From positions 240,474 to 304,473 of the forward strand of contig JAGLYZ010000002.1 of the NCBI GenBank assembly GCA_023131895.1: a stretch of DNA of 64,000 nucleotides, given 5' to 3'. The notes under the pieces are model-generated. The model saw only the letters and a program-made list of their open reading frames with translations. It was not told where the DNA came from and made no database searches. Shown here piece by piece: positions 14,293-57,684 of this stretch. The position numbers and the translations under genes are program-made. The DNA is from Candidatus Parcubacteria bacterium. GTDB taxonomy: Bacteria; Patescibacteriota; Minisyncoccia; Minisyncoccales; JAGMDC01. Positions within the stretch are counted from its first letter, which is position 1. Every line of letters starts with the position of its first letter.

Positions 14293-16338
14293 ATGAACTT
14301 AATTATTGTAGAAAGTCCAACGAAATCAAAAACAATTCAGCAATTTTTAGGGCCTAAATACAAGGTCATTTCTTCATATGGCCATATCCGCGATTTGCCG
14401 AAAAGCGAATTAGGAATTGATATAGAAAACGATTTTAAGCCAAAATACATTATCCCTTTAAAAGCAAGAAAAACTGTTAACTCTTTAAAAAAAGATTCTC
14501 AAAAAGCAGACCTGCTTATTCTGGCTACTGATGAAGACAGAGAAGGAGAAGCAATTGCCTATCATCTAAGCCAGATTTTAAATTCAAATGGTAAAAAACA
14601 TCAGAGGATTGTCTTTCATGAAATAACTAAACAGGCGATTGAACAAGCACTAAAAAATCCTCGTGATATAGATATGGATCTTGTTGACGCCCAGCAAGCA
14701 AGAAGAATTTTAGACCGTTTAGTTGGCTATAAACTCTCCCCTCTTTTATGGAAAAAAGTTGCCAGAGGGCTCTCTGCAGGAAGGGTTCAGTCAGTGACAG
14801 TTCGGCTTGTGGTAGATCGGGAAAGAGAAATTGAAAATTTTAAGCCAGAAGAATATTGGACAATTATCGCCCATCTTGAAAAATACATCGAGAACAGTTC
14901 TCGATGTATTGAAGCGCTTTTGGTTAAAAAAAACGGCAAAGTAATTCCTAAATTAGGGATTAAAGTAAAAAAAGAAGCAGAAAAAATAATTGAAGATTTA
15001 AAAGGAGCAGAATACAAAATTTCAAATATTGAAAAAAAAGAAACTAAAAGAAATCCTTTGCCTCCATTTACTACTTCTACTTTACAGCAAGAATCATGGA
15101 GAAGGCTGCGTTGGCCAGTAAGACATACAATGAGAATTTCCCAGCAGCTTTATGAAAAAGGATTTATCACCTATCATAGAACCGATTCTTTAAATTTATC
15201 TGAAATATCTTTATTTTCCGCTAAAAAATTTATTATTAATAGCTTTGGAAAAGAATATTGGGCTGGATTTTTGAAAAAATACAAAACAAAAACAAAAGCA
15301 GCTCAAGAAGCCCACGAAGCTATAAGGCCTGCTTATCCTGATAAAAAGCCAAACAAAATAAAAGAAAAACTAGATGATAATCAATTTCGGCTCTATGATT
15401 TGATTTGGAGAAGATTTATTGCTTGTCAAATGAGCCAAGCTCGTTTCGATTCCACTACTGTTGACATCTCTGCCAAAAACTATATTTTTAGGGCTTCTGG
15501 ACAAGTATTGAAGTTTGATGGTTTTCTAAAAGTGTACCCTTTGAAATTTGAGGAATCAGAGTTACCTATTTTAGAAAAAAATGAAGTTTTAAAATTAAAA
15601 AAGCTTGTTCCTTCCCAGCACTTTACCCAGCCGTTGCCTCGCTATACTGAAGCTGGTTTAATTAAGGTTTTGGAAGAAAACGGCATTGGCAGGCCGTCAA
15701 CCTATGCGCCAACAATTTCTACTATTCAGGATAGAAATTATGTTCAGAAAAATGAAAATAAAAAGTTTGAACCGACAGAAATAGGAATTATTGTAAATGA
15801 TCTTTTGGTTGAACATTTTCCTAAAATTGTAGATATGAAATTCACAGCAGAAATGGAAAAGGATTTAGATGAAATCTCTGAAGGCAAGAAAAAATTGGTT
15901 CCAGTAATACAAGAATTTTATAAACCTTTTGAAAAAAACTTAAAGGCAAAAGAAAAAGAAATAGATAAAAAAGAAATTGCTGAAGAAAAAACAGATGAAA
16001 ACTGCCCTGAATGCGGCTCGCCATTGATAAAAAAAATGGGCAGATATGGAAAATTTTACGCTTGTTCCGGCTTCCCAAAATGCAGATATACCAAACCAAT
16101 AGAGAAACCAAAGCTTGGAATAAAATGCCCAAAATGCGAAAAAGGAGAAATAGTTGAAAAAAGAACTAGAAAAGGAAAAATTTTTTACGCTTGCAATCGC
16201 TACCCGGAATGCGATTTTGCCTTATGGGACAAACCTATAAATGAAAAATGCCCTGAATGCGGTTCTCTTTTAATTCAAACAAAAAAAGGCAAAATCAAAT
16301 GCTCAAACAAGGAATGCGATTATGTTAGAGATTCTTAA
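14293..16338 (+). CDS. topA: DNA topoisomerase I
   Basis: 681 aa with a Toprim N-terminus (IIVESPTKSKTI), active-site region ITYHRTDS and three C-terminal CxxC...CxxC zinc ribbons. Confidence 0.94.
   Translation: MNLIIVESPTKSKTIQQFLGPKYKVISSYGHIRDLPKSELGIDIENDFKPKYIIPLKARKTVNSLKKDSQKADLLILATDEDREGEAIAYHLSQILNSNGKKHQRIVFHEITKQAIEQALKNPRDIDMDLVDAQQARRILDRLVGYKLSPLLWKKVARGLSAGRVQSVTVRLVVDREREIENFKPEEYWTIIAHLEKYIENSSRCIEALLVKKNGKVIPKLGIKVKKEAEKIIEDLKGAEYKISNIEKKETKRNPLPPFTTSTLQQESWRRLRWPVRHTMRISQQLYEKGFITYHRTDSLNLSEISLFSAKKFIINSFGKEYWAGFLKKYKTKTKAAQEAHEAIRPAYPDKKPNKIKEKLDDNQFRLYDLIWRRFIACQMSQARFDSTTVDISAKNYIFRASGQVLKFDGFLKVYPLKFEESELPILEKNEVLKLKKLVPSQHFTQPLPRYTEAGLIKVLEENGIGRPSTYAPTISTIQDRNYVQKNENKKFEPTEIGIIVNDLLVEHFPKIVDMKFTAEMEKDLDEISEGKKKLVPVIQEFYKPFEKNLKAKEKEIDKKEIAEEKTDENCPECGSPLIKKMGRYGKFYACSGFPKCRYTKPIEKPKLGIKCPKCEKGEIVEKRTRKGKIFYACNRYPECDFALWDKPINEKCPECGSLLIQTKKGKIKCSNKECDYVRDS
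14884..14908. repeat. GAGAAC-N-GTTCTC family palindrome inside topA
   Basis: tacatcgagaac-a-gttctcgatgta, with 12-bp perfect arms. In frame, encoding YIENSSRCI. Confidence 0.85.
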
Positions 16339-16912
16339 GAATCTGGAAATCTTTTTTGAGAATTTCCTTCATGCTTGGATTATAGGTTGCTGCAGCTGGA
16401 TGATAAAGAGAAACAATTTTCACCCTGTTAAATTCTCTCACTTCAAAAACTTTTCCATGAATCTTGCTTATTCCCTCAATTTTATCTTTCAGGCCGTATT
16501 TCTCAAAAATAAAAGCTGTAGAAAAATTACCCAAAGCGCAAATTGCTTTGGGTTTTATGATTTCAATTTGTTTCAAAAGATAAGAAGTGCAGGCCTCTAT
16601 TTCTTCTGTTTTAGGATTGCGATTTTCTGGAGGACGGCATTTCAGGATATTACAAATATAGACATCTGTTCTCTTAATTCCTACAGAGCTTAAAAGCTCG
16701 TCTAAAATTTTACCAGCTGCTCCGCAAAAAGGCCGACCAGTCTTGTCTTCTGACGCACCAGGCGCCTCGCCAATAAACATTATTTCTGCTTCATGGTTTC
16801 CCTGTCCAATAACAGGCAGACCTCGTGTTTTATAAAGTGAGCACTTTTTACATTGGAGAACTTCCTCTTTTATTTCTTTAAGTTCTTTTTCTATTTTTTT
16901 AAGTTCCTCCAT
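16325..16912 (-). CDS. udg: Uracil-DNA glycosylase, family 4
   Basis: 195 aa with CxxC near the N-terminus and GEAPGASED, a family-4 UDG motif. The 3' end overlaps the topA 3' end by 14 nt. Confidence 0.88.
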   Translation of the reverse strand: MEELKKIEKELKEIKEEVLQCKKCSLYKTRGLPVIGQGNHEAEIMFIGEAPGASEDKTGRPFCGAAGKILDELLSSVGIKRTDVYICNILKCRPPENRNPKTEEIEACTSYLLKQIEIIKPKAICALGNFSTAFIFEKYGLKDKIEGISKIHGKVFEVREFNRVKIVSLYHPAAATYNPSMKEILKKDFQILKNL

Positions 16913-16923
16913 AATTATTTTTT

Positions 16924-17080
16924 AGACCTCTTGCAAAATAATCTTTTCTACTGCAATCCCAGAATTTTGGCTGCAAATCATTCAGAGATGCGCGCTATAC
17001 AATGTATAACCTCCTCATTCTTCATAATTTTCGCTCAAAATTTTGTGATTTCGTTACGAAAAATTATTTCGCAATAGGTC
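16924..17080 (-). mobile_element. MITE-like element, copy 1 (about 157 bp, imperfect 18-23 bp terminal inverted repeats)
   Basis: About 88% identical by manual alignment to the reverse complement of 52969-53127. Ends are AGACCT(A/C)TTGC(G/A)AAATAA. The right end supplies the sufD codons RPIAK plus stop. Confidence 0.75.
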
Positions 17081-18026
17081 TTTCTAAAAATCCATTAACA
17101 ATTAAATTAATGGCTTCTTTTTCGTTTAATCCACGCATTCTTAAATAATTTAATTCCTCTCCTGAAATTCTTCCAATTGAGGCCTCATGAGTAATTTGAG
17201 CTTTTGGGTGTTTGCAAATAAGCTCTGGTATAAGCCTTATTACAGAAGCTTTGCCTGCCCCGTAGGTCCCGCCCCTGCGGGATCCTTCGGGGTCAACTAA
17301 TAACCCCTGGCAGTCCAAATGACCTTTGCTTTCAGACTCGGCTATAACTTGAGAACGAGCAGTAATTTCGCTATCTTTATCTCCAACTAATCTTAATTTC
17401 ACTATTCCAGAAGCACCTTTTTCTTTTAGAATTAATGTCTCTTCAAATTCTGTTTTGGTTTGAGAAAATTTTCCCACAATATTCAGATTAGCAGAGGATC
17501 CTTCCAAAAGAGTAATTAATGTTTTCATCTTTAATTTTTTAGGAGGAGAAAAAACTTTATAACTATAATCTAATTTCGCCTTTTTCTCTAAGAAAAACTC
17601 ATAATTTGGCTCAACAATATCTCTTTCTCCCCAAGAGTGAATATGTCTATATTGAAGAGTTGATCCTTGTCTTAAAATAATCTTCCCTTTTGCCTGATGT
17701 ATTCCAGCTAAATTCTTTTTTAAAGCATTACAAGTTCCTTGGAGCTCTACTTTTAAATTCTTTTCTACAATTAAAAGATTCTGAAGCTCCTGCTTTATGC
17801 TTTTATTAGCAAGAGTAATACAAGTAAAAATGGGCTGTTGAGGTTGTTCTTTAACCCAAATAAAATAGCCGCTTTTTGGTTTTTTAAAAAAATATTCTTT
17901 AGTCCAGTTATATTTCTGCCAAGCCAATTCAGAAGGAAGAATCTCTATTTCTTTCAACTCACAAATTTCTGGAATTTGATTATTTATCTGATAATAATTC
18001 ACATTTTTTACATTTTTCATATCCAT
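17064..18026 (-). CDS. sufD: Fe-S cluster assembly protein SufB/SufD family
   Basis: 320 aa with C-terminal SufBD beta-helix pattern (ITHEASIGRISGEELNYLRMRGL). Overlaps the sufC 3' end. Confidence 0.75.
   Translation of the reverse strand: MDMKNVKNVNYYQINNQIPEICELKEIEILPSELAWQKYNWTKEYFFKKPKSGYFIWVKEQPQQPIFTCITLANKSIKQELQNLLIVEKNLKVELQGTCNALKKNLAGIHQAKGKIILRQGSTLQYRHIHSWGERDIVEPNYEFFLEKKAKLDYSYKVFSPPKKLKMKTLITLLEGSSANLNIVGKFSQTKTEFEETLILKEKGASGIVKLRLVGDKDSEITARSQVIAESESKGHLDCQGLLVDPEGSRRGGTYGAGKASVIRLIPELICKHPKAQITHEASIGRISGEELNYLRMRGLNEKEAINLIVNGFLERPIAK
17258..17292. repeat. GC-rich hairpin inserted in sufD
   Basis: ccccgtagg-tcccgc-ccct-gcggga-tccttcgggg, a stem of about 15 bp with one mismatch. 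In frame, encoding PEGSRRGGTYGAG. Confidence 0.8.
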
Positions 18027-18714
18027 ATCTTTTAATGGTTTTCAGAATCTTTTTATAATTTTTTTCTTTACAAATAATCCTTCCATTAACTATTACATTA
18101 GTAATATTTGGTTTTAAAAATTTTAAAATTTCTCCAGAGTGAGTAATCAAGAGAATTGAAATATCTTTTGCGAGCAGTTCTTTTTTAATTATCTCTGCTA
18201 CTTCTTTTATTTTCTTTAAATCCAAGCCAGAATCAATCTCATCAAAAATTACTAGCTTTGGTCTTAAAGATAAAATCTGTAATAATTCTGACATTTTTTT
18301 CTCTCCACCGGAAAAATTAACATTAATCTCTCTATCTAATAAGTAGAGCGAGAACTGTTCTCGCTCTATCAGAGCGAGAACAGTTCTCGCTCTAGATCTC
18401 GCGTGGATCTTCTCTAATAATTGAGAAAGTTTTACTCCTTTTACAGCTGGCGGATTTTGCCAAGTTAAAGCAATCCCTAATTTAACTCGTTTTTCAGGAG
18501 AAAGTTTGGTAATATCTTCTTTATTAAAAAAAATCCTGCCTTCTATAATTTTAACATTCGGATTCCCTAAAATCACTTGAGCAAGAGTGGATTTCCCGCT
18601 GGCATTTGGACCAAGAAGAGCTTGTATCTCCCCTTTTTTTATTGTTAAATCAATCCCTTCTAATATCTCCTTACCATCGCCTGAAACTTTTAAATTTTTA
18701 ATTTCTAAAAGCAT
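17980..18714 (-). CDS. sufC: Fe-S cluster assembly ATPase SufC
   Basis: 244 aa ABC ATPase with Walker A GPNASGKST, signature FSGGEKK and Walker B VIFDEIDSGLD. Confidence 0.9.
   Translation of the reverse strand: MLLEIKNLKVSGDGKEILEGIDLTIKKGEIQALLGPNASGKSTLAQVILGNPNVKIIEGRIFFNKEDITKLSPEKRVKLGIALTWQNPPAVKGVKLSQLLEKIHARSRARTVLALIEREQFSLYLLDREINVNFSGGEKKMSELLQILSLRPKLVIFDEIDSGLDLKKIKEVAEIIKKELLAKDISILLITHSGEILKFLKPNITNVIVNGRIICKEKNYKKILKTIKRYGYEKCKKCELLSDK
18345..18410. repeat. Two tandem 23-bp GAGAAC-N-GTTCTC palindromes plus an AGATC..GATCT palindrome inside sufC
   Basis: agagcgagaac-t-gttctcgctct at 18345-18367, agagcgagaac-a-gttctcgctct at 18371-18393, then agatctcgcgtggatct. In frame, encoding SRARTVLALIEREQFSLY. 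Confidence 0.9.
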
Positions 18715-18825
18715 AAAAATTATTTTTCTAATTATATTCTTCTAAAATCTTTCTTGTTTTCGGCTATTTTAAAACCTCAGCCAAAGTCGTATCTTTAGTG
18801 ATTTTGTTTTTCATTTTTACAAGGA

Positions 18826-23390: not shown

Positions 23391-24748
23391 TATTTAGGAA
23401 TTCTTTCTACGATTTTATAAACAAATTCTTCTAATTTTTTAAATTCGTTTTTTGTCTTTGCTTCATAAGCAATAGAAATTTTTGCTTCAGTATTAGACGC
23501 TCTAAATAAAACCCAGGAATCCTTAAAAATAATTTTAAGACCGTCTAAATAATCTAATTTATATTTTTGCCTGAAGTTAATCTTCAAATCCTCTATAAAC
23601 TTAAACTTATCTTTTTTTCTTATCTCAACCCTCATAGAATTAAAATAATAGTTTTGAACATCTTTATAGGCCTCTGATAATTTTATTTTCTTCTTTTCTA
23701 AATATTCTAAAATTTTCAAGGTTGCAAAAGCGGCATCATCTGCACCAAAAATTTCTCTAAAGAAATAGTGTCCGGAAATTTCTCCTCCTATTACTGCTTG
23801 GGAGTCTAAAAGTTTTTTCTGAATAAAAACATGTCCTACCCTACAACCTATAGGCAGCCCTTTATAATATTTAATTATCTCATCAATTACGCTTGAACTC
23901 AAAGAATCATGAACAACTTTTTCTTTTTTATCTTCTAAATAACTTTTTATTAAGATACTGAATAATTGCGCAAAATTAAGGATTTTTCCATTCTCATCTA
24001 CGGCGACAATCCTGTCAGCGTCTGCGTCATAGCCAAATCCACAATCGGCTTTTTGGGCAATTACTGTCTTTTGTAGTTCTTTTAAGTTCTCTTTTTTGGG
24101 CTCTGGTTCTCTATTTGGAAAATTTCCATCTAATTCACAAAATAAGGGCTCGTATTTTATATTAAATCTATCTAACAACTCAAATAAAACAGTAGAAATA
24201 ACACCATTACCGCAATCAATAACAACTTTTTTATTTGCTTCTTTTAAAGTGATTTTCTTAGATATAAAATTAATATAATCCTCTAAAACAAATTTTTCTT
24301 TGATAATACCTTTGCCCTTTTTGAATTTTTCAGAAAGAATTAATTCTTTAATTTCCTCTAATCCATTTTCTACTCCAACTCCTACACCTTCTTTATTATA
24401 AAGTAAAAAACCTTGATACTCTTTCGGATTATGGCTTGCAGTGATAGAAATTCCCCCATTAAAACCATAATAGCTGATAACAAAAATTATTAATGGAGTA
24501 GGAACAATCCCAATATCAATCACTTCAGCGCCGCTTTCAGTCAATCCTTTGACTAATTCCTTTTTCAGAGATTCTCCTCCAATTCTGCAATCTCTGCCAA
24601 CCACAATTTTTCCTTGGTTAAAAGTTGCAAATGATTTACCAAGCCTATAAGCAAATTCTTCATTTATTTGAGAAGGATAAATTCCTCTAATATCATAAGC
24701 CCTAAAAATATATGGATCAATCTTTGTCATATTTTTTGGCAAATTCAA
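23390..24748 (-). CDS. Phosphomannomutase/phosphoglucomutase/phosphoglucosamine mutase family
   Basis: 452 aa with active-site TASHNP and Mg site GYDADADR. Confidence 0.88.
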   Translation of the reverse strand: MNLPKNMTKIDPYIFRAYDIRGIYPSQINEEFAYRLGKSFATFNQGKIVVGRDCRIGGESLKKELVKGLTESGAEVIDIGIVPTPLIIFVISYYGFNGGISITASHNPKEYQGFLLYNKEGVGVGVENGLEEIKELILSEKFKKGKGIIKEKFVLEDYINFISKKITLKEANKKVVIDCGNGVISTVLFELLDRFNIKYEPLFCELDGNFPNREPEPKKENLKELQKTVIAQKADCGFGYDADADRIVAVDENGKILNFAQLFSILIKSYLEDKKEKVVHDSLSSSVIDEIIKYYKGLPIGCRVGHVFIQKKLLDSQAVIGGEISGHYFFREIFGADDAAFATLKILEYLEKKKIKLSEAYKDVQNYYFNSMRVEIRKKDKFKFIEDLKINFRQKYKLDYLDGLKIIFKDSWVLFRASNTEAKISIAYEAKTKNEFKKLEEFVYKIVERIPK

Positions 24749-32929: not shown

Positions 32930-33790
32930 TTAAATTTTAAACAACTTTTTAGCGTTTGTACTGGTGATTTCAGCTATTTTCTCAAGAGGGATATTTTTAA
33001 TTTTAGCAATATGTTCGGCAATGTATTTGATAAAAATGGGTTCATTTCGGCCCGCCTTCGCTAAAGCTTTGGCGGGCAAAGGCGGAGTTAAAAAAGGACA
33101 ATCTGTTTCAATCAAAATTCTATCTAATGGCGTTTTTTTAATTATTTCATCAAGGTCTAATTTAAAAACAATTCCATTAAAACCTAAATAAAATCCCATT
33201 TCTAAAAATTTCTCTGCCTGCTCCCAAGTACCGGTAAAAGAATGGATTACCGAGGTCAGACCTTCTATAGGAGGTCTGACCTCAAGTATTTCTATTAAAT
33301 CGTCGTGAGCCATTCGGCAGTGAAAGATTACTGGCAGATTTAATTCTTCGGCTAATTTTAATTCCTGCTCAAGAAGTGCTTTTTGTTTTTCTTTAAAAAG
33401 CGCAAGCTTTTTCTTTGTTTTCGGCTTATAGTAATAATCCAATCCAATTTCGCCAATAGCCACTACTTTTTTAGATTTTGCTAATTCTTTGTATTTATTG
33501 AAATTAAAATTCTCTTCTAATATATCTTCTAAGTTTTGAGTTTTAAGTTGTGGCTTTGACTTTTGAGTTTTGACTTTTGAGTTTTGTTTAATATTAATAG
33601 GGTGAAGTCCAATCGCCGCATATACTCTTTCATTATAATCCTTTGAAATTTCAACTGCTTTTTTTGAGGTCTCATAATTTGTCCCTACATTTATCATCCA
33701 AATATTATTATCTAAACATCTCTTTATAACTTCATCTCTATCTCTGTCAAAAGCAGCAAAATTAAGATGAGCATGAGTATCTACAAGCAT
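32930..33790 (-). CDS. tatD: TatD-family metal-dependent hydrolase/DNase
   Basis: 286 aa with MLVDTHAHL, the ...ETDCPFLTP... blocks and NEP. About 30 aa longer than usual because of three repeat insertions. Confidence 0.9.
   Translation of the reverse strand: MLVDTHAHLNFAAFDRDRDEVIKRCLDNNIWMINVGTNYETSKKAVEISKDYNERVYAAIGLHPINIKQNSKVKTQKSKPQLKTQNLEDILEENFNFNKYKELAKSKKVVAIGEIGLDYYYKPKTKKKLALFKEKQKALLEQELKLAEELNLPVIFHCRMAHDDLIEILEVRPPIEGLTSVIHSFTGTWEQAEKFLEMGFYLGFNGIVFKLDLDEIIKKTPLDRILIETDCPFLTPPLPAKALAKAGRNEPIFIKYIAEHIAKIKNIPLEKIAEITSTNAKKLFKI
33049..33085. repeat. AAGCTT-centred GC-rich element inside tatD
   Basis: ggcccgccttcgctaaagctttggcgggcaaaggcgg. Its reverse complement closely matches argS 47682-47708. 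Encodes PLPAKALAKAG between the CPFLTP and RNEP motifs. Confidence 0.8.
33252..33283. repeat. Perfect 12-bp-stem hairpin inside tatD
   Basis: gaggtcagacct-tctatagg-aggtctgacctc. In frame, encoding EVRPPIEGLTSV. Confidence 0.9.
33531..33587. repeat. G/T-rich ~57-nt repeat shared with ileS
   Basis: aagttttgagttttaagttgtggctttgacttttgagttttgacttttgagttttg is about 80% identical to 44810-44866. Encodes NSKVKTQKSKPQLKTQNL. Confidence 0.85.
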
Positions 33791-43962: not shown

Positions 43963-46900
43963 TTAAATTCTTCTAATTCCCAGCCAGAGTTCTTGGCCTT
44001 CTATTTTAAAAGTTTTCTCAATATCAAAAACTCTTTTTGGTCTGTCACCCTCTAAAAGGTCCTTAACTACAATCTCTTTTAAAATTGTCTTTTTATTTTT
44101 CTTTAAAATTTCACAGAGCTTTTCTTCCCCAGAATATCTAACAAACACCCGGTGTTTGGGCTTATAACCAGCTTTTTTACGCATTTCTTGAATATTTCGA
44201 ATAATCTCCCTGATTATTCCTTCTTCTCTTAACTTCGGCGTAATTTTAGTATCTAATTTAAAGGTTTTATCAAAGGTAATTTTTTTCACATTTACTTCAT
44301 CTTTAATCAATCCTAATAATTCTTTATTCCTTTTTAGCTTTTCATTTTTACTTTTTACTTCGAGCAAAGCGAGCGGCTGACGGACTTTTATTCCTGCCTT
44401 TGCTCGTTGAGCCAATCCCTTTGCTACAATTTCCCGCACTATTTTCATTTTTTCTTCTAATTTCTTATCAATTGCCTTCTTATCTGGTTTTGGCCAATCT
44501 TCTAAATGAACAGATTTATTTTTCGAAGAATTTTGGCATATTTCTTCTGAAATAAATGGAACAAACGGGGCTGTCAACTTAGCTAAGCTAAGAAGAACAA
44601 ATCCCAAAGTTTGCGACGCTTCTTGAAAATCTTTTTTTGTTTTGGGGTTCTGAAATCTCTTCCTAGATCTTCTCACATACCATAAAGATAAATCGTTGAT
44701 AACAAAATCCTCTATATCTCTGGCCGCTGAAGTAATATCGTAATTATCTATCTTTTCAGAAACCCCTGAAATTAATTCATTTAATCTGGAAATTATCCAT
44801 CTATCTAACAAGTTTTGAGCTTTGCGTTGTGGCTTTGCACTTTGAATTTTGAGCTTTGAGTTTTCTTTTGGAACATATGTTTCAAAAAAGGTATATACAT
44901 TATAGTAAGTAAGAATAAATTTCTTTAATGCCTTATCTACATCTTTTTCTGTAAATAGTTTGGAATCGCCTGGCTGATTTATAGTATAAAAATACCAGCG
45001 AGCAGCATCTGAACCATATTTTTCAATTATATGCCAGGGATCAACCACATTGCCCTTGGACTTTGACATTTTTTCTCCCTTTTCGTCTAAAACATGGCCT
45101 AAAGAAATAACATTTTTATAAGGAGTGCCAAAATCTAATAAAGTTGAGATTGCCAACATGGTATAAAACCAGCCTCTTGTTTGATCAATTGCTTCGCAAA
45201 TATAATCAGCTGGAAATTGATTTTTAAATTTTTCTTGCTCAAAAGGGTAATGATACTGGGCAAACGGCATTGCGCCAGAATCAAACCAGCAATCAATCAC
45301 TTCTGGAACTCGCTTCATTAAATTATTACATTTAGGACACTCAAATTTTACTTCATCAATATATGGTTTGTGAAAATCCAATTCTTGATTTTCTTTATTA
45401 TAAGGAAAAAGCTTAAATTCTAATCTCCTTAATTCTCCAACATCCATACTTCTATCTTGCCAGTGTTGTGTAATTTCTTGTTGAGAAAATCCTTTAACAA
45501 TACTTTCCGCCATTAAGATTGGACCGCCATGGCTAACAATTAAAATATTCTTATTTTTGTATTTTTTATCTACTTCTTTTAGAAAATCGTAGACTCGCTT
45601 TTTAACATCTGTGTAGCTTTCTCCTTTAAACGGCCTTTTGTCAAATTTATCTATTTTCCCTTCAAATAATTTACGGTACTCTTTAATATTTTTACCATCA
45701 AAAATACCAATATTTACTTCTATTAAACGTTTATCATATTTTACTTTCTTTCCAATTTCTTTTGAAATAATTTCAGCTGTTTGCTTAGTTCTTAAAAAAT
45801 CAGAAGAGAATATTAAATCTATTTTTTCTTTTTTTAACTCTTGCACTGCTTTTTTAATTTGCTCCCTGCCTTTTTTAGTCAAAGGACAGCCAGCTCCCTT
45901 ATTTTTATAAGAAAGAATATGCTTTTTGAAGCACTCTGATTCTCCATGTCTTAAAATAAAATATTTATTAGTGCTGAATTTCTGTTTTAATAAATCATCT
46001 TTGCTTCCGATAATTTCTTGATAACCGCATTTTTTACACTGCCAAATAGGCAATGGAGTTCCCCAATATCTTTCTCTGGAGATAGCCCAATCCTTTAATC
46101 CTCTCAACCATTCGCCGAACCTGCCCTGCTTTAAATGCTTAGGAACCCAGTTTATCTTTTCGTTATTTTTAATCAAATCTCTCTTAACTTTTGTCATTTT
46201 AATAAACCAACTCTTCTGGGCATAGTAGATTAAAGGCGTCTTGCATCTCCAGCAAAAAGGATAGTCATGTTCATACAGTTCTTCTTTAAAAAGCAGCTTT
46301 CTCTTTTTTAAATCTTCAATAATCAGCGGATCAGCCTTTTTTACAAACAAATTATTCCACTTATATCCTGAAGTCATCATCTTGCCCTGCTCATCTACCG
46401 TAATCAAAACAGGAAGATTGTTTTCTTTGCTAACGTTCATATCATCCTCACCAAATGCTGGCGCAATATGAACCAATCCTGTGCCATCCTCTGTTGTTAC
46501 AAAATCTCCAGCAACTATCTTATAAATGTTTGGAATTTGGAATTTATACAAGGGTTTGTATTTAAGGCCGATTAAATCTTTTCCTTTAAATTCCTCTATA
46601 ACTTCGCCTTCTATGCCAGATTCTTTTATTCTGTTTTTCGCCAAAATCAAAAATTCATTATTAACTTTTACCTTAGCATAAATAAACTTCGGGTTGACTG
46701 CTACTGCTGCATTACCAGGCAAAGTCCATGGCGTTGTAGTCCAAACAAGCAAATATGTATTTTTCTGCCCTTTGATAGAAAACTTTACATAAATTGAGTT
46801 TTCTTTGACTTTCTTGTATCCTTGCGCCACTTCATGGGAAGATAAAGATGTTCCGCATCTGGGACAGTATGGCACAACTTTATAATCCTTATATAAAAGT

Positions 46901-49919: not shown

Positions 49920-50319
49920 GGGAGTGTCAGGTCTCGACAGAAATTTGAGTTAAAATATGCAAGTCGAGTTTTCTCAAATCTCGCAAAACTTTGAGAAAAA
50001 AATAAGTGTCAACTTATTTTCTAAAGCTAAAACGGCTCTCGTTAACGCCATTGGCGAATATCCGAGTGTTCCGACTTTAGCTCCTGCTTACGTTTAATCG
50101 TAAGTCATCTGATTGTTGATTCTCGCTGGGCAAAATCAGGTGTTATATTTAGCGAGATACTCAGTTCTCTTGTCTCAAAGGACTGGGAAAAATATAGAGG
50201 CTAAGAATATTGAAATTTTGTTCATTTTTTATTTAGTATTCCGAAAAAACAAAATGGACTAAATTTGTAGAAATATTTTGGCAAAATTTCTGGACAGGGC
50301 TTCGATGCCCTCACTTCCA
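49920..50319 (+). ncRNA. ssrA: tmRNA (SsrA)
   Basis: Begins 4 nt after the smpB stop. 5' GGGAGTG pairs with 3' CACTTCC, and a tRNA-like T arm (agggcTTCGATgccct) plus discriminator A are present. An internal ORF at 50026-50097 ends ...TLAPAYV-stop. Confidence 0.8.
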
Positions 50320-50330
50320 CATAAAATAAT

Positions 50331-51728: not shown

Positions 51729-51767
51729 TTTTACCCCCCCTTATTCTTTTTTTAAATTACAATTTTC

Positions 51768-51849
51768 TTTTCTTTATTATAACAGACTTTAGTCTGATAT
51801 ATCAAATCTTTTCTTTATTATAACAAACTTTAGTTTGATATATCAAGTC
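51768..51849 (-). promoter_or_regulatory. Tandem duplicated (2 x 41 bp) consensus promoter with spacer palindrome
   Basis: Each unit on the minus strand reads TTGATA, an 18-nt spacer, then TATAAT. The spacer palindrome is cagac-taaa-gtctg in the proximal copy and caaac-taaa-gtttg in the distal copy. Confidence 0.65.
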
Positions 51850-52322: not shown

Positions 52323-52967
52323 TTATTCTTTTGAAATCGGGGGTTGGATTATTTTAATTTTAGAAATTTTAGACATTCTCCCGCTTCTAGGCTTCATTTC
52401 TTTTAAGATTAAAATCGGTAAAAATGCACTAAGAAAAATAAAAATTCCTACTCCAATAAAAAGAATGTTAAAACCAAAATTATGAGCGATTATTCCTCCT
52501 AATGCCCCAGCTATCCCTGTGCTTATTCCAATTGAAGCACCCCTAACACTCCAATCAAATGCCTCTTTATTTTTATCAATATGCCTTGTAAAAATAGCAG
52601 TATAACCAGGAATATTCATTCCCATTCCTACAGCGTAAAGTACCTGTAAAAAATAAATATGCCATGGTAAATAAGAAAAAATATAACCAAAGACAGCTAA
52701 AGCTGCTAGAATATTACCAACAACTATAAAACAAATATCATCTTTTTCTCCATGATTTTTATCTAAATATTTACCAAAAGGGATTAAAACTACTGAGTTT
52801 ATTATCCAATAAATTGCAGCGGCAAATCCGACTACTTCAATATTACCTCCCTGAATATTATCAGTCAAAAAAACAGCAAAGATTGGAGTTATAAAACCAA
52901 ATCCTGTTAATAAAGCTACATCAGACCAAATTAAAATCTTTATAACTTTGTTTATAGATTTAAACAT
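52323..52967 (-). CDS. Half-size (6-TM) MFS-like membrane protein
   Basis: Start taken at MFKSINKV (52967). The upstream 39 codons of the track ORF read through the MITE-like element. Has an MFS motif-A-like loop, PFGKYLDKNHG. Confidence 0.55.
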   Translation of the reverse strand: MFKSINKVIKILIWSDVALLTGFGFITPIFAVFLTDNIQGGNIEVVGFAAAIYWIINSVVLIPFGKYLDKNHGEKDDICFIVVGNILAALAVFGYIFSYLPWHIYFLQVLYAVGMGMNIPGYTAIFTRHIDKNKEAFDWSVRGASIGISTGIAGALGGIIAHNFGFNILFIGVGIFIFLSAFLPILILKEMKPRSGRMSKISKIKIIQPPISKE

Positions 52968-52968
52968 A

Positions 52969-53127
52969 AGACCTATTGCGAAATAATTTTTCGTAGCGAA
53001 ATCACAAAATTTTGAGCGAAAATTGTGAAGAATGAGAAGGTTATATGTTGTATAGCCAACGAATTCTGAACAATTTGCAGCCAAAATTTTGGGATTGCAG
53101 TAGAAAAGGTTATTTTGTAAGAGGTCT
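52969..53127 (+). mobile_element. MITE-like element, copy 2 (about 159 bp)
   Basis: An inverted copy of 16924-17080. Its right end supplies the DUF72 codons RPLTK plus stop, and its left end lies 1 nt from the ATG of the MFS-like gene. Confidence 0.75.
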
Positions 53128-53865
53128 ATAACTTAAAAGTTGTTTTGCGTTTTCAACAGCATAACCCATAGTATCATTGTTGAAATACACATAAACATCC
53201 AAACCTTTTTTTCGCCATTTTTTGATTTTCTGAGCCAAATTTTCAAGTTCTTTTTTCGTATATTTCGAACTAAATAAAATTTTAGAACCATGCATTCTAA
53301 TATAAACAAAATCAGCTGTTATCTCCTCGGCTTTTGGAAAGGAAGGTGAATCACTAATAACCCATGCGCAGTTGTATTTTTTTAGTAACTTGTAAATTTT
53401 CTCATTACACCAAGTTTGATGCCGAAATTCAAAACTATACTTTAAATTTATCGAAGTCCGACTTCGTAATATTGTTAAAAACTCTTCTAATCTTTTTGTA
53501 TTCTCGTCAGTAGCTTGAAAGTTTGGAGGAAATTGGAACAAAATCGGACCAAGCTTTTCTTTGAGATTTAGGGCATTTTCTAAAAAAGTTTTCCAGGGTA
53601 TTTTTACATCCTTTAACCGTTTGATGTGGGTAATGAAACGACTTGCTTTGACACTAAATATAAAATCTTTAGGAGTTTGTTTATACCAATTCTGATAAGT
53701 AGCTGGCTTTGGTAAATGATAAAAAGAATAATTTACTTCCGCTGTCTTGAAATGCTCTGAAAAATATTTCAATTTATCTTTTCCTGATAAATCTTCAGGA
53801 TAAAAAATACCATCCCAATGAGAATAGACCCAACCCGATGTTCCGATAAAAACTTTGCCTGCCAT
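53110..53865 (-). CDS. DUF72-family protein (YecE-like)
   Basis: 251 aa with the N-terminal IGTSGWVYSHW signature of DUF72. Confidence 0.8.
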   Translation of the reverse strand: MAGKVFIGTSGWVYSHWDGIFYPEDLSGKDKLKYFSEHFKTAEVNYSFYHLPKPATYQNWYKQTPKDFIFSVKASRFITHIKRLKDVKIPWKTFLENALNLKEKLGPILFQFPPNFQATDENTKRLEEFLTILRSRTSINLKYSFEFRHQTWCNEKIYKLLKKYNCAWVISDSPSFPKAEEITADFVYIRMHGSKILFSSKYTKKELENLAQKIKKWRKKGLDVYVYFNNDTMGYAVENAKQLLSYRPLTK

Positions 53866-56346: not shown

Positions 56347-57378
56347 CTAAACCAAAGCTATTCTTTTGTTTTTGTAATTGATGAAAATTTGTTTTTCTTT
56401 AATTACTTTCCCAATTGTCTCGGCTTCAACTTTTTCCCTTTTTAATAAATTTAAAATTCTATCTTTGTCTTTATCTTTAACAATTATAGCAAATCCCCAG
56501 CCCATGTTAAAAATTCTAAACATTTCTTTTAAACTGATTTTTCCTGTTTCTTGGATTAAATTAAAAATCGGCTGAGGTTTAAAATTATTAAACTCAAAGC
56601 CAACTTTTCTATTTAATTTTTTAAATTTTAAATAAGCATCACCAGTTATATGGACAGCGCCAAAAATCTCAAATCTTTTGGCAATCTCTAAAAATGGTTT
56701 AACATAAATTTTTGTTGGTTTAAGACACTCAAAAATTAATTCTCTTTTAAAACCTTTCAGCTTGTCAAAAGCATTAAATTTACCGCCCCATTTTTTAAAA
56801 AGCACTTTTCTTACTAAAGTTAAGCCGTTAGAATGAATTCCAGAGCTTTGAAAGCCAATTATAATACTGCCTGGTTGTATTTTCTCTCCAGTGATTATAT
56901 CTTTTTTCTCTATTTCTCCAACGCAATCACAATTTATATGGTAAAAAGTATTTAGAAGTTCTAATACATCGGCTGTCTCTCCTCCTATTAAAGGACAATT
57001 TGCTTCTTTAACCCCGATAATCAATCCTTTCTGAATCTCTCTTAATATTTTCGGCTCTGACTTTTTAATATCAATCACATCTGTAATAGCTATTGGTTCT
57101 GCTCCGCATCTTATACAATCATTTGCCACCATAGCCACAGCATCTTGGCCAATAGTATCATGTTTATTAATCCATTCAGCTAAAAGGACCTTTGTTCCTA
57201 CTCCATCACAGGTCTTCACCTGATATCTATCATTTCCAATTGGATAAAGAACATTGAAAGGAGTTTTGATTATTTTTCCATATTTACTTAATTTGTAAGT
57301 AAGCTCAAAACTCTTTAAAGATTTTTTTGCCTTATCCCTTATTTCTCTGCTAACTCCGGCTTTTGAATAAGTTATCAT
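56347..57378 (-). CDS. purM: Phosphoribosylformylglycinamidine cyclo-ligase (AIR synthase)
   Basis: 343 aa with YSKAGVS and SSGIHSNGLTLVRK motifs. Composition is host-like AT-rich with no SD. Confidence 0.88.
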   Translation of the reverse strand: MITYSKAGVSREIRDKAKKSLKSFELTYKLSKYGKIIKTPFNVLYPIGNDRYQVKTCDGVGTKVLLAEWINKHDTIGQDAVAMVANDCIRCGAEPIAITDVIDIKKSEPKILREIQKGLIIGVKEANCPLIGGETADVLELLNTFYHINCDCVGEIEKKDIITGEKIQPGSIIIGFQSSGIHSNGLTLVRKVLFKKWGGKFNAFDKLKGFKRELIFECLKPTKIYVKPFLEIAKRFEIFGAVHITGDAYLKFKKLNRKVGFEFNNFKPQPIFNLIQETGKISLKEMFRIFNMGWGFAIIVKDKDKDRILNLLKREKVEAETIGKVIKEKQIFINYKNKRIALV

Positions 57379-57390
57379 AAGAGGTCTATA

Positions 57391-57684
57391 CTAAAAATCT
57401 GTTATGCCGCTTTTTTCTTTTAGATATCTAATAATCCTATCTATCTCCGACTGATCAAAATCTTTAATCGATTCAAATTCTTTAGCTCTTACTTTACGGA
57501 GAACTCCTTTAAATTCCTCCTTCTTAATATCCTCGCCACAGCTGTTAAATAATTCATTCATTATCTTTTCTCTTTCATATTTACTAAATATCTTGCTGTC
57601 TGTAGGCAGATCATGCGAGGGGTCTCTTAAGGTATCTCTAAGCTCACTGCTATTGATTTTTTCTTTTTCTTCAAACAAAGACAT
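57391..57684 (-). CDS. Hypothetical acidic helical protein
   Basis: 97 aa ORF in an operon-like position after the secreted PG-binding protein. No motif recognised. Confidence 0.4.
   Translation of the reverse strand: MSLFEEKEKINSSELRDTLRDPSHDLPTDSKIFSKYEREKIMNELFNSCGEDIKKEEFKGVLRKVRAKEFESIKDFDQSEIDRIIRYLKEKSGITDF

Follow-up and report, generated by a model that had tools for sequence, protein, structure and literature searches.

How does a genome with almost no intergenic space come to carry the same ~160-bp sequence between two unrelated pairs of genes, and how does that sequence come to provide the last codons of the gene that runs into it? The question is raised by a 64,000-nt stretch of a Candidatus Parcubacteria bacterium genome (assembly GCA_023131895.1, contig JAGLYZ010000002.1, positions 240,474 to 304,473; the whole of this stretch is hereafter the window), which is ~93% coding and holds the repeat at 16924-17081 and 52969-53127. 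The repeat is very likely a transposable element of the miniature inverted-repeat type (MITE) and related to the IS5 family of insertion sequences (ISs), a classification that draws on its termini, on the empty sites found in close relatives, and on the short duplications that flank its copies.

Two Copies with Shared Termini

A repeat search and an nhmmer profile of the family both recover only two copies from the window: copy 1 (158 bp, 16924-17081, minus strand) and copy 2 (159 bp, 52969-53127, plus strand). They are 90.6% identical over 160 nt by BLASTN. In a MAFFT alignment of 16900-17110(+) with 52940-53150(-), copy 1 and the reverse complement of copy 2 show 90% mean column identity, which begins and ends exactly at the AGACCT…AGGTCT borders. 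The initial annotation, which described a full-length repeat of ~157 bp in two copies, was right as to the repeat itself, slightly low in its estimate of identity (88%), and one base short at the end of copy 1. That end lies at 17081 and not at 17080, since the terminal T is the partner of the A that opens AGACCT. Copy 1 runs from an A-end that starts AGACCTATTGCGAAATAA to a B-end that finishes TTATTTTGCAAGAGGTCT, while the A-end of copy 2 is at 52969 and its B-end at 53127. The element termini are 18-nt inverted repeats, also written AGACCTNTTGCNAAATAA, and the terminal motif AGACCTNTTNCNAAATAA, which the family as a whole conserves, is exact at all four ends. These four are its only exact matches in the window; with up to two mismatches there are five, against 0.9 expected, a number that none of the shuffles reached. 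The copies are crossed by mechanical open reading frames (ORFs) only and have no transposase coding capacity.

All four flanking genes lie on the minus strand, and copy 2 is inverted relative to copy 1 with respect to them. Copy 1 fills the spacer between a SufBD-family gene (sufD; Pfam SUFBD_core, 17064-18026(-)) and udg (UDG, 16325-16912(-)), whereas copy 2 fills that between a DUF72 gene (53110-53865(-)) and an MFS gene (MFS_1, 52323-52967(-)). The two upstream genes run into opposite ends of the element. At copy 1, the A-end inverted repeat (17064-17081(-)) is read as AGA CCT ATT GCG AAA TAA and yields RPIAK plus a stop, such that the SufBD-family protein ends …NGFLERPIAK-TAA. At copy 2, the B-end inverted repeat (53110-53127(-)) is read as AGA CCT CTT ACA AAA TAA and yields RPLTK plus the DUF72 stop; this protein ends …LLSYRPLTK-TAA, its native Val-stop having been replaced. 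Downstream, the udg ATG is found 11 nt past copy 1 and the MFS ATG 1 nt past copy 2. The use of opposite ends, the filled spacers, and both distances to the next ATG had been reported correctly from the outset.

Orthologous proteins bear out the proposal that the element supplies the final codons and the stop of the gene that enters it. The RPIAK tail is absent from 118 of 120 SufD orthologues, and the two exceptions are the source genome's own protein (on record as a 318-aa version with a different start call) and P0004, a relative with a shortened element at the same sufD site. SufD orthologues end in …NGFLE followed by 0-2 residues, or in unrelated tails. RPLTK occurs in one of 120 DUF72 orthologues, which is again the source genome's own, and the closest relatives end …LLNYV. 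The native termini of SufD and DUF72 do not end in RP(I/L)xK.

Empty Sites and Target-Site Duplications

Both window loci have counterparts without the element. In the syntenic locus L002 (GCA_030612885.1), the sufD stop is separated from the udg ATG by 2 nt (GGATTTTTAGAAAATTAATTATG). Without the element and one of its 3-bp flanks, the window would read GGA TTT TTA GAA AAA TAA TT ATG, that is, GFLEK-stop, 2 nt, and ATG, which is the commonest orthologue arrangement and has the same spacing as L002. The DUF72-MFS junction is empty in L139 and L141, which read AAT TAT GTT TAA, with an 8-nt gene overlap (ATGTTTAA) in which the MFS ATG is embedded. The window reads AGT TAT (element) TAT GTT TAA at this junction, so that the MFS start codon lies at the centre of a perfect 3-bp duplication, and removal of the element with one TAT gives …LLSYV-stop, matching the …NYV of the closest orthologues. 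In the metagenome-assembled genome (MAG) RS_14_22 this junction is empty (L139), although elsewhere, in an unrelated and gene-poor region (L046), the same MAG has an element that matches copy 2 at 96% identity. The initial annotation had considered that only two copies might exist and that syntenic relatives might share the sequence as ordinary conserved intergenic DNA; instead, relatives are empty at both loci.

The duplication at copy 2 consists of TAT upstream (53128-53130(-)), which is the Tyr codon of DUF72, and TAT downstream (52966-52968(-)), of which AT combines with the G at 52965 to form the MFS ATG. Copy 1 is flanked, in gene orientation, by GAA upstream (17082-17084(-)), the last native sufD codon (Glu), and by AAA downstream (16921-16923(-)), one base off GAA, so that its duplication is imperfect. 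Across the family, 34 of 49 non-redundant full-length copies have identical 3-bp flanks, as do 41 of 61 pairs among metagenome elements. The empty sites and these identical flanks show that the 3-bp target-site duplications are real, and the earlier view of the flanking repeats as too short to be convincing no longer holds. A 2-bp duplication (TT or TA) was rejected, as only 3 bp rebuilds the orthologous empty sites.

The sufD insertion has a reduced counterpart in L001, a contig from a sibling sample. Its sufD site carries a 35-bp derivative (1525-1559), essentially two terminal repeats fused, in the same orientation and with the same imperfect GAA/AAA flanks as copy 1. The L001 SufD is translated through this derivative and ends 13 nt into udg. 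Since the atypical, imperfect duplication and the orientation are identical, L001 and copy 1 go back to one shared insertion, followed in L001 by internal deletion; an independent insertion was rejected. The similarity of L001 to window 16000-18800 is mosaic, with 92.6% nucleotide identity downstream on the udg side and 79% upstream in sufC/sufD, the latter below the 82% of L002. Such a pattern is suggestive of recombination that broke at the element or close to it. Mini-derivatives of 35-53 bp with little beyond two terminal repeats recur (L001; L161, L175, L183, and L226, 53 bp; L192, 50 bp), some with TAT duplications, and are either products of hairpin collapse or a separate mini subfamily.

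A third copy may have left a trace in the window. At 57379-57387(-), the 9-nt terminus AGACCTCTT is flanked by TAT and ATG, and the full site (57376-57390(-)) falls exactly between the stop of an ORF at 57391-57684 and the ATG of a 343-aa ORF at 56347-57378. The string TAT AGACCTCTT ATG may thus be a remnant or footprint, tentatively, as the 9-mer alone is not above chance (six matches versus 2.8 expected, with six reached in 4 of 100 shuffles). A third, weak profile match at 23937-24026 (E = 0.04) is inside a 452-aa ORF and was dismissed as chance.

Target Choice and Closure of the Upstream Gene

When oriented by the profile, the duplications of non-redundant copies read ATA in 26 cases and TAT in 3, which indicates that insertion is oriented relative to a non-palindromic target. 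CATA, that is, TATG on the other strand, is present at the A-end in 32 of 51 copies. The ATG of that TATG opens an ORF of at least 80 codons in 21 of the 51 (~40%) and is not a start codon in 5-6, while 32 of the 416 TATG sites of the window (~8%) are gene starts. In a genome that is ~93% coding, only insertions at junctions would be expected to survive, which would account for the position of the copies; a transposase preference for (C)ATA together with strong purifying selection would then leave mainly start-codon insertions. Half of the window ORFs of at least 100 aa begin with TATG, the preferred target of the element.

These features suggest the following course of events. For its movement the element would depend on a DDE transposase of the IS5 family acting in trans, of the HTH_Tnp_4 plus DDE_Tnp_4 (PIF/Harbinger-like) type. 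Insertion of the Patescibacteria subfamily duplicates 3 bp at ATA/TAT, usually within TATG and in a fixed orientation, and a TATG start codon, often overlapping the upstream gene, would be the commonest survivable target. The downstream duplicate TAT and the next G regenerate the ATG, and the upstream gene is closed either by a TAG that spans the element border or by the in-frame AAA-TAA within the repeat.

Three routes of upstream closure are observed in the family: (i) the duplicated T joins the AG of the element to form TAG, (ii) TA joins the first A of the element where the target ends in TA, and (iii) AGA CCT NTT NCN AAA TAA is read in frame, adding five residues. The stop-donation mechanism of the initial annotation corresponds to the third route and is right for both window copies; across the family, AAA-TAA is the minority route and TAG the commonest. 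Reconstruction of ten sites shows that at the ATGA overlaps of L189, L223, L252, L052, and L090 the upstream TGA has become TAG. The proteins are unchanged because the duplicated T and the element AG rebuild a stop, and 5-6 of 9 informative insertions split an ATGA overlap with neither protein altered.

Copy 2 is the textbook case: the duplicated TAT belongs to the start codon of the MFS gene, and the DUF72 gene lost its Val-stop and gained RPLTK-stop. Copy 1 is atypical and older, having entered GAA one codon ahead of the sufD stop and added RPIAK-stop. Both are probably fossils in a genome that possibly no longer has the transposase.

Family Distribution

GTDB species genomes were scanned for the terminal motif, and the genome-derived counts hold among the matches listed. 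Among these are elements 136-195 bp long with paired ends. They occur in MAGs of Parcubacteria/Patescibacteria, Uhrbacteria and Doudnabacteria among them, as well as in MAGs labelled Gammaproteobacteria, in one Caenarcaniphilales MAG, and in many Oscillatoriales cyanobacteria. A scan of JGI metagenomes with the pattern of the Patescibacteria subfamily gave 112 loci with 62 paired elements, mostly 159-168 bp, and many of the metagenome copies are at contig ends, as expected of multi-copy repeats. A family profile, built from 38 members and run on the collected loci, gave at least 95 matches, of which at least 57 are full-length; they come from 46+ loci in metagenomes and in Patescibacteria MAGs. 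The MAG NC_groundwater_404 has at least four copies (L052, L086, and L124). The loci of the copies are unrelated, and the element may point either way with respect to the genes. The family thus extends far beyond the two window copies, and among the loci collected its autonomous relatives are seen only in other phyla.

Several full-length copies of the Patescibacteria type (160-185 bp) occur in MAGs named "uncultured Gammaproteobacteria" (L113, L127, L049, L118, and L090). They reflect either a true cross-phylum family or mislabelled or contaminated bins. Viral contigs gave 14 single inverted-repeat matches and no real element, and the plasmid and phage collections gave no element match.

Transposase-Encoding Relatives

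Elements of 1032 bp with the same termini are found in the cyanobacteria Microcoleus sp. S13_B4 (L136:2197-3228) and Lyngbya sp. CCAP 1446/10 (L137:331-1362, frameshifted). Their transposases contain the Pfam domains HTH_Tnp_4, DDE_Tnp_4, and DDE_Tnp_1. The region L136:2243-2974(-) scores 181.2 bits against the NCBIfam model NF033581, "IS5 family transposase" (cut-off 140), and the top 120 named homologues of the L136 transposase are all cyanobacterial (Microcoleus and others) and bear the NCBI name IS5 family transposase. The terminal 18-22 nt of the window element agree with those of the 1032-bp IS at 21 of 22 nt. Cyanobacterial MITEs of 155 bp consist of both IS ends joined, 85 nt from one and ~45-53 nt from the other, at 84-91% identity. 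A further relative, a 912-bp element in a Trueperaceae MAG (L038), encodes a transposase ~50% identical and has similar tips (18 of 19 nt by BLASTN). Several IS5 subgroups produce short target-site duplications of 2-4 bp according to the ISfinder classification, and the 3-bp duplication of the present family fits this type.

At both ends of the 1032-bp IS, an inward-facing TGATATAAT, resembling an extended -10 element, is present at ~nt 24-32. The L136 copy lies within another transposon gene pair, with HTH_28 and DDE_3 ORFs on either side.

A Maintained, Strand-Asymmetric Hairpin

Every copy folds as a near full-length hairpin. Copy 1 (16924-17080 in the fold) reaches -52.2 kcal/mol on the minus strand versus -36.9 kcal/mol on the plus strand, and copy 2 reaches -59.8 kcal/mol on the plus strand versus -38.0 kcal/mol on the minus strand, which is the mRNA sense; the fold z-scores of the window copies are between -4.8 and -10.1. 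In a set of 38 diverse members, standard pairs make up 94.7% of the pair cells. Changes on both sides affect 123 cells versus 28.7 in shuffles, a count that 0 of 500 shuffles reached and to which slid controls come nowhere near. The stem is therefore maintained by compensatory change.

The strand starting AGACCTATTGCGAAATAA folds better than its complement, by a median of 14 kcal/mol and by up to 28 kcal/mol (Patescibacteria-type copies). Where the arms differ by a transition, this strand has G·U and its complement A·C. In the usual orientation of insertion it is the weaker strand that corresponds to the operon mRNA, a pattern to which copy 2 conforms and copy 1 does not. Each arm also repeats a short motif (CGAAA in one, TGCAA in the other) three times, at distances of ~10, 29, and 49 nt from the tip, and these iterations are probably subterminal transposase-binding sites.

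Near the apex, at about position 66, 22 of the 38 members have a purine block (GAGGAGG/GAGAAGG) on the better-folding strand, CCUCCUC on the other, and in some members the block is followed after 4-5 nt by an ATG and an ORF of 2-3 codons. Rfam has no gathering-score match in the window beyond tRNA and tmRNA, and none at an E-value of 1 or below on 16850-17150. No promoter or terminator consensus was found inside the elements. A Shine-Dalgarno role for the terminal AGG/GAGG was rejected as a general explanation, as the genome barely uses such sequences: a Shine-Dalgarno-like 4-mer occurs at -18 to -4 in 5 of 50 window ORFs of at least 150 aa, versus a background of 8%.

The alternative that survives best accepts a MITE and adds selection on its hairpin at the level of RNA or single strands, where it would restore termination-reinitiation coupling of overlapping genes. 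The base of the stem would juxtapose the donated stop and the downstream AUG, and the strand asymmetry would keep the mRNA-sense hairpin openable. The compensatory pairing and the strand-asymmetric folding agree with this, as does the usual assignment of the weaker strand to the operon mRNA (for copy 2, -38 versus -60 kcal/mol). So does the geometry: the stem base has the stop on one side (the border TAG, or TAA at nt 16-18) and the AUG on the other, 1 nt beyond the far end, and most informative insertions split an ATGA overlap while leaving the proteins intact. Copy 1 contradicts the proposal, being reversed, with the strong strand as mRNA and its far end 11 nt from the ATG. Covariation of the arms is also explicable by a shared array of transposase sites or by hairpin-templated repair, the Shine-Dalgarno-like AGG at the tip is probably irrelevant, and the lack of a promoter or terminator consensus within the element offers no help. 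Selection for coupling is unlikely as an account of the hairpin.

A broader form of the same idea is that the MITE lineage has adapted to operon seams in very compact genomes and is more than a tolerated parasite, which seems unlikely. Four features point that way: (i) targeting of TATG in one orientation, (ii) a terminal AG and AAATAA that restore the upstream stop in two of three frames, (iii) a maintained hairpin that juxtaposes stop and AUG, and (iv) a G·U/A·C asymmetry that keeps the mRNA-sense hairpin meltable. With such a hairpin bringing the stop next to the regenerated AUG, genes that once overlapped could remain translationally coupled despite a 158-nt insertion. That the predicted hairpin does preserve translational coupling, or has some other RNA-level role, is speculative and improbable. 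A functional RNA may also be encoded by the better-folding strand, which has the conserved GAGGAGG block and the internal loops.

Weighing the Explanations

Several observations weigh against an IS5-related MITE. Internally, the Patescibacteria element is not alignable with the cyanobacterial IS, and the match is confined to 18-28 nt at the tips. By tblastn and a profile hidden Markov model built from 106 transposases, no cognate transposase is present in the window, in the Patescibacteria loci, or in the 112 metagenome loci (508 kb). The initial annotation was correct that the window holds no transposase and that the element is non-autonomous; because no cognate enzyme was seen in the loci searched, its mobilising enzyme in Patescibacteria is inferred, and no parent IS of this subfamily was found among the collected loci. 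Copy 1 is atypical in its target, and its duplication (GAA/AAA) is imperfect. The stem covariation goes beyond what a decaying selfish element needs and hints at extra constraint. Lastly, copies in the source genome were counted within the 64-kb window of a contig of ~330 kb, and other genomes among the matches listed.

A non-mobile element that is present twice by chance, either a regulatory hairpin conserved between cistrons or a gene for a small RNA, would account for the very stable fold, the stem covariation, and the conserved internal loops and purine block. It is contradicted by the empty sites in close syntenic relatives and by the 3-bp duplications seen throughout the family. The copies are, moreover, at unrelated loci in both orientations, their termini are common to transposase-encoding elements, and Rfam offers no match at an E-value of 1 or below; this explanation is thus highly improbable.

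IS200/IS605 elements insert in an oriented manner at short targets, and Y1 transposases do not produce 3-bp target-site duplications. A REP/REPIN-like or IS200/IS605-type palindrome moved as single-stranded DNA by a Y1/RAYT tyrosine transposase would fit the full-length hairpin, its strand-asymmetric stability, and oriented insertion at a short, non-palindromic target, but is highly improbable given the 3-bp duplications, the true terminal inverted repeats identical to those of DDE IS5-family elements, and cyanobacterial MITEs that are demonstrably deletion derivatives of a DDE IS.

Other Features of the Window

Two tandem 41-nt units, 93% identical, are located in the spacer upstream of a NUDIX gene (51766-51847), and each contains the palindrome CAGACTTTAGTCTG / CAAACTTTAGTTTG. 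Repeats with a 14-nt period (TTTTGAG/TTTTGAC type) are found at 33506-33603 and 44799-44868, with 80% identity between the two loci. The tmRNA gene (49920-50322; tag peptide VNLFSKAKTALVNAIGEYPSVPTLAPAYV) and tRNA-Leu(CAA) (1766-1850) are both ordinary.

Significance and Comparison with Known Systems

Small genomes are typical of Patescibacteria (candidate phyla radiation), and mobile DNA is generally considered scarce in them. The present family is a well-documented MITE family in this group, with empty sites, target duplications, and a likely transposase family. It shows how a transposon can persist where almost no intergenic space exists, by landing on start codons or gene overlaps with its own stop and a regenerated ATG, so that neither neighbouring gene is broken. 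For annotation, it accounts for recurrent RP(L/I)(A/T)K C-terminal tails and for unexpected spacers of ~160 bp. That cyanobacterial IS5 elements have near-identical 18-22-nt termini points to a clade of transposases that extends across phyla. A literature search found no paper on MITEs in the candidate phyla radiation and none giving the terminal sequence of this element. The main text of a 2024 census of prokaryotic MITEs does not mention Patescibacteria (PMC11602168).

The closest class comprises Tourist/PIF-Harbinger MITEs and bacterial IS5-derived MITEs, which are likewise short and non-coding, with terminal inverted repeats, a 3-bp A/T-rich duplication, a preference for the proximity of genes, and relatives that encode DDE_Tnp_4 and HTH_Tnp_4. 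Classical Tourist/PIF-Harbinger targets are TTA/TAA. The target here is, in contrast, the non-palindromic ATA/TAT, usually within TATG, and insertion is oriented; the window host also differs in being a Patescibacteria genome for which a partner transposase was not found in the loci searched.

The 1032-bp IS and the 155/167-bp MITEs of Oscillatoriales have near-identical 18-22-nt termini and a 3-bp duplication (AAT/ATT in their case), and ORFs that enter them end RPLAK-stop. They differ in their unalignable interiors, a target of ANT rather than ATA, and a weaker strand asymmetry. The Oscillatoriales MITEs are, furthermore, simple joins of IS ends, whereas the Patescibacteria subfamily has no parent IS among the loci collected.

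Correia elements (CREE/NEMIS) of Neisseria are gene-adjacent inverted-repeat elements of ~100-155 bp that are co-transcribed and form long RNA hairpins; they have a TA duplication along with promoter and IHF-binding features, and to our knowledge no cognate transposase. The window element resembles them as an inverted-repeat hairpin within transcription units and differs in its 3-bp duplication, its IS5-family relative, and the absence of any promoter consensus found.

Rickettsia palindromic elements (RPEs) and intragenic ERIC sequences are palindromic repeats within reading frames that change the protein and keep the gene (PMC10969869). Like them, the element described here alters reading frames without destroying genes. 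RPEs reside inside ORFs and are read through in frame, while the window element is positioned at gene ends, where it adds 0-5 residues and then a stop. The MITE class itself is already known, and the family is noteworthy rather than revolutionary for its oriented targeting of start codons, its seamless compatibility with gene overlaps, and its maintained, strand-asymmetric hairpin.

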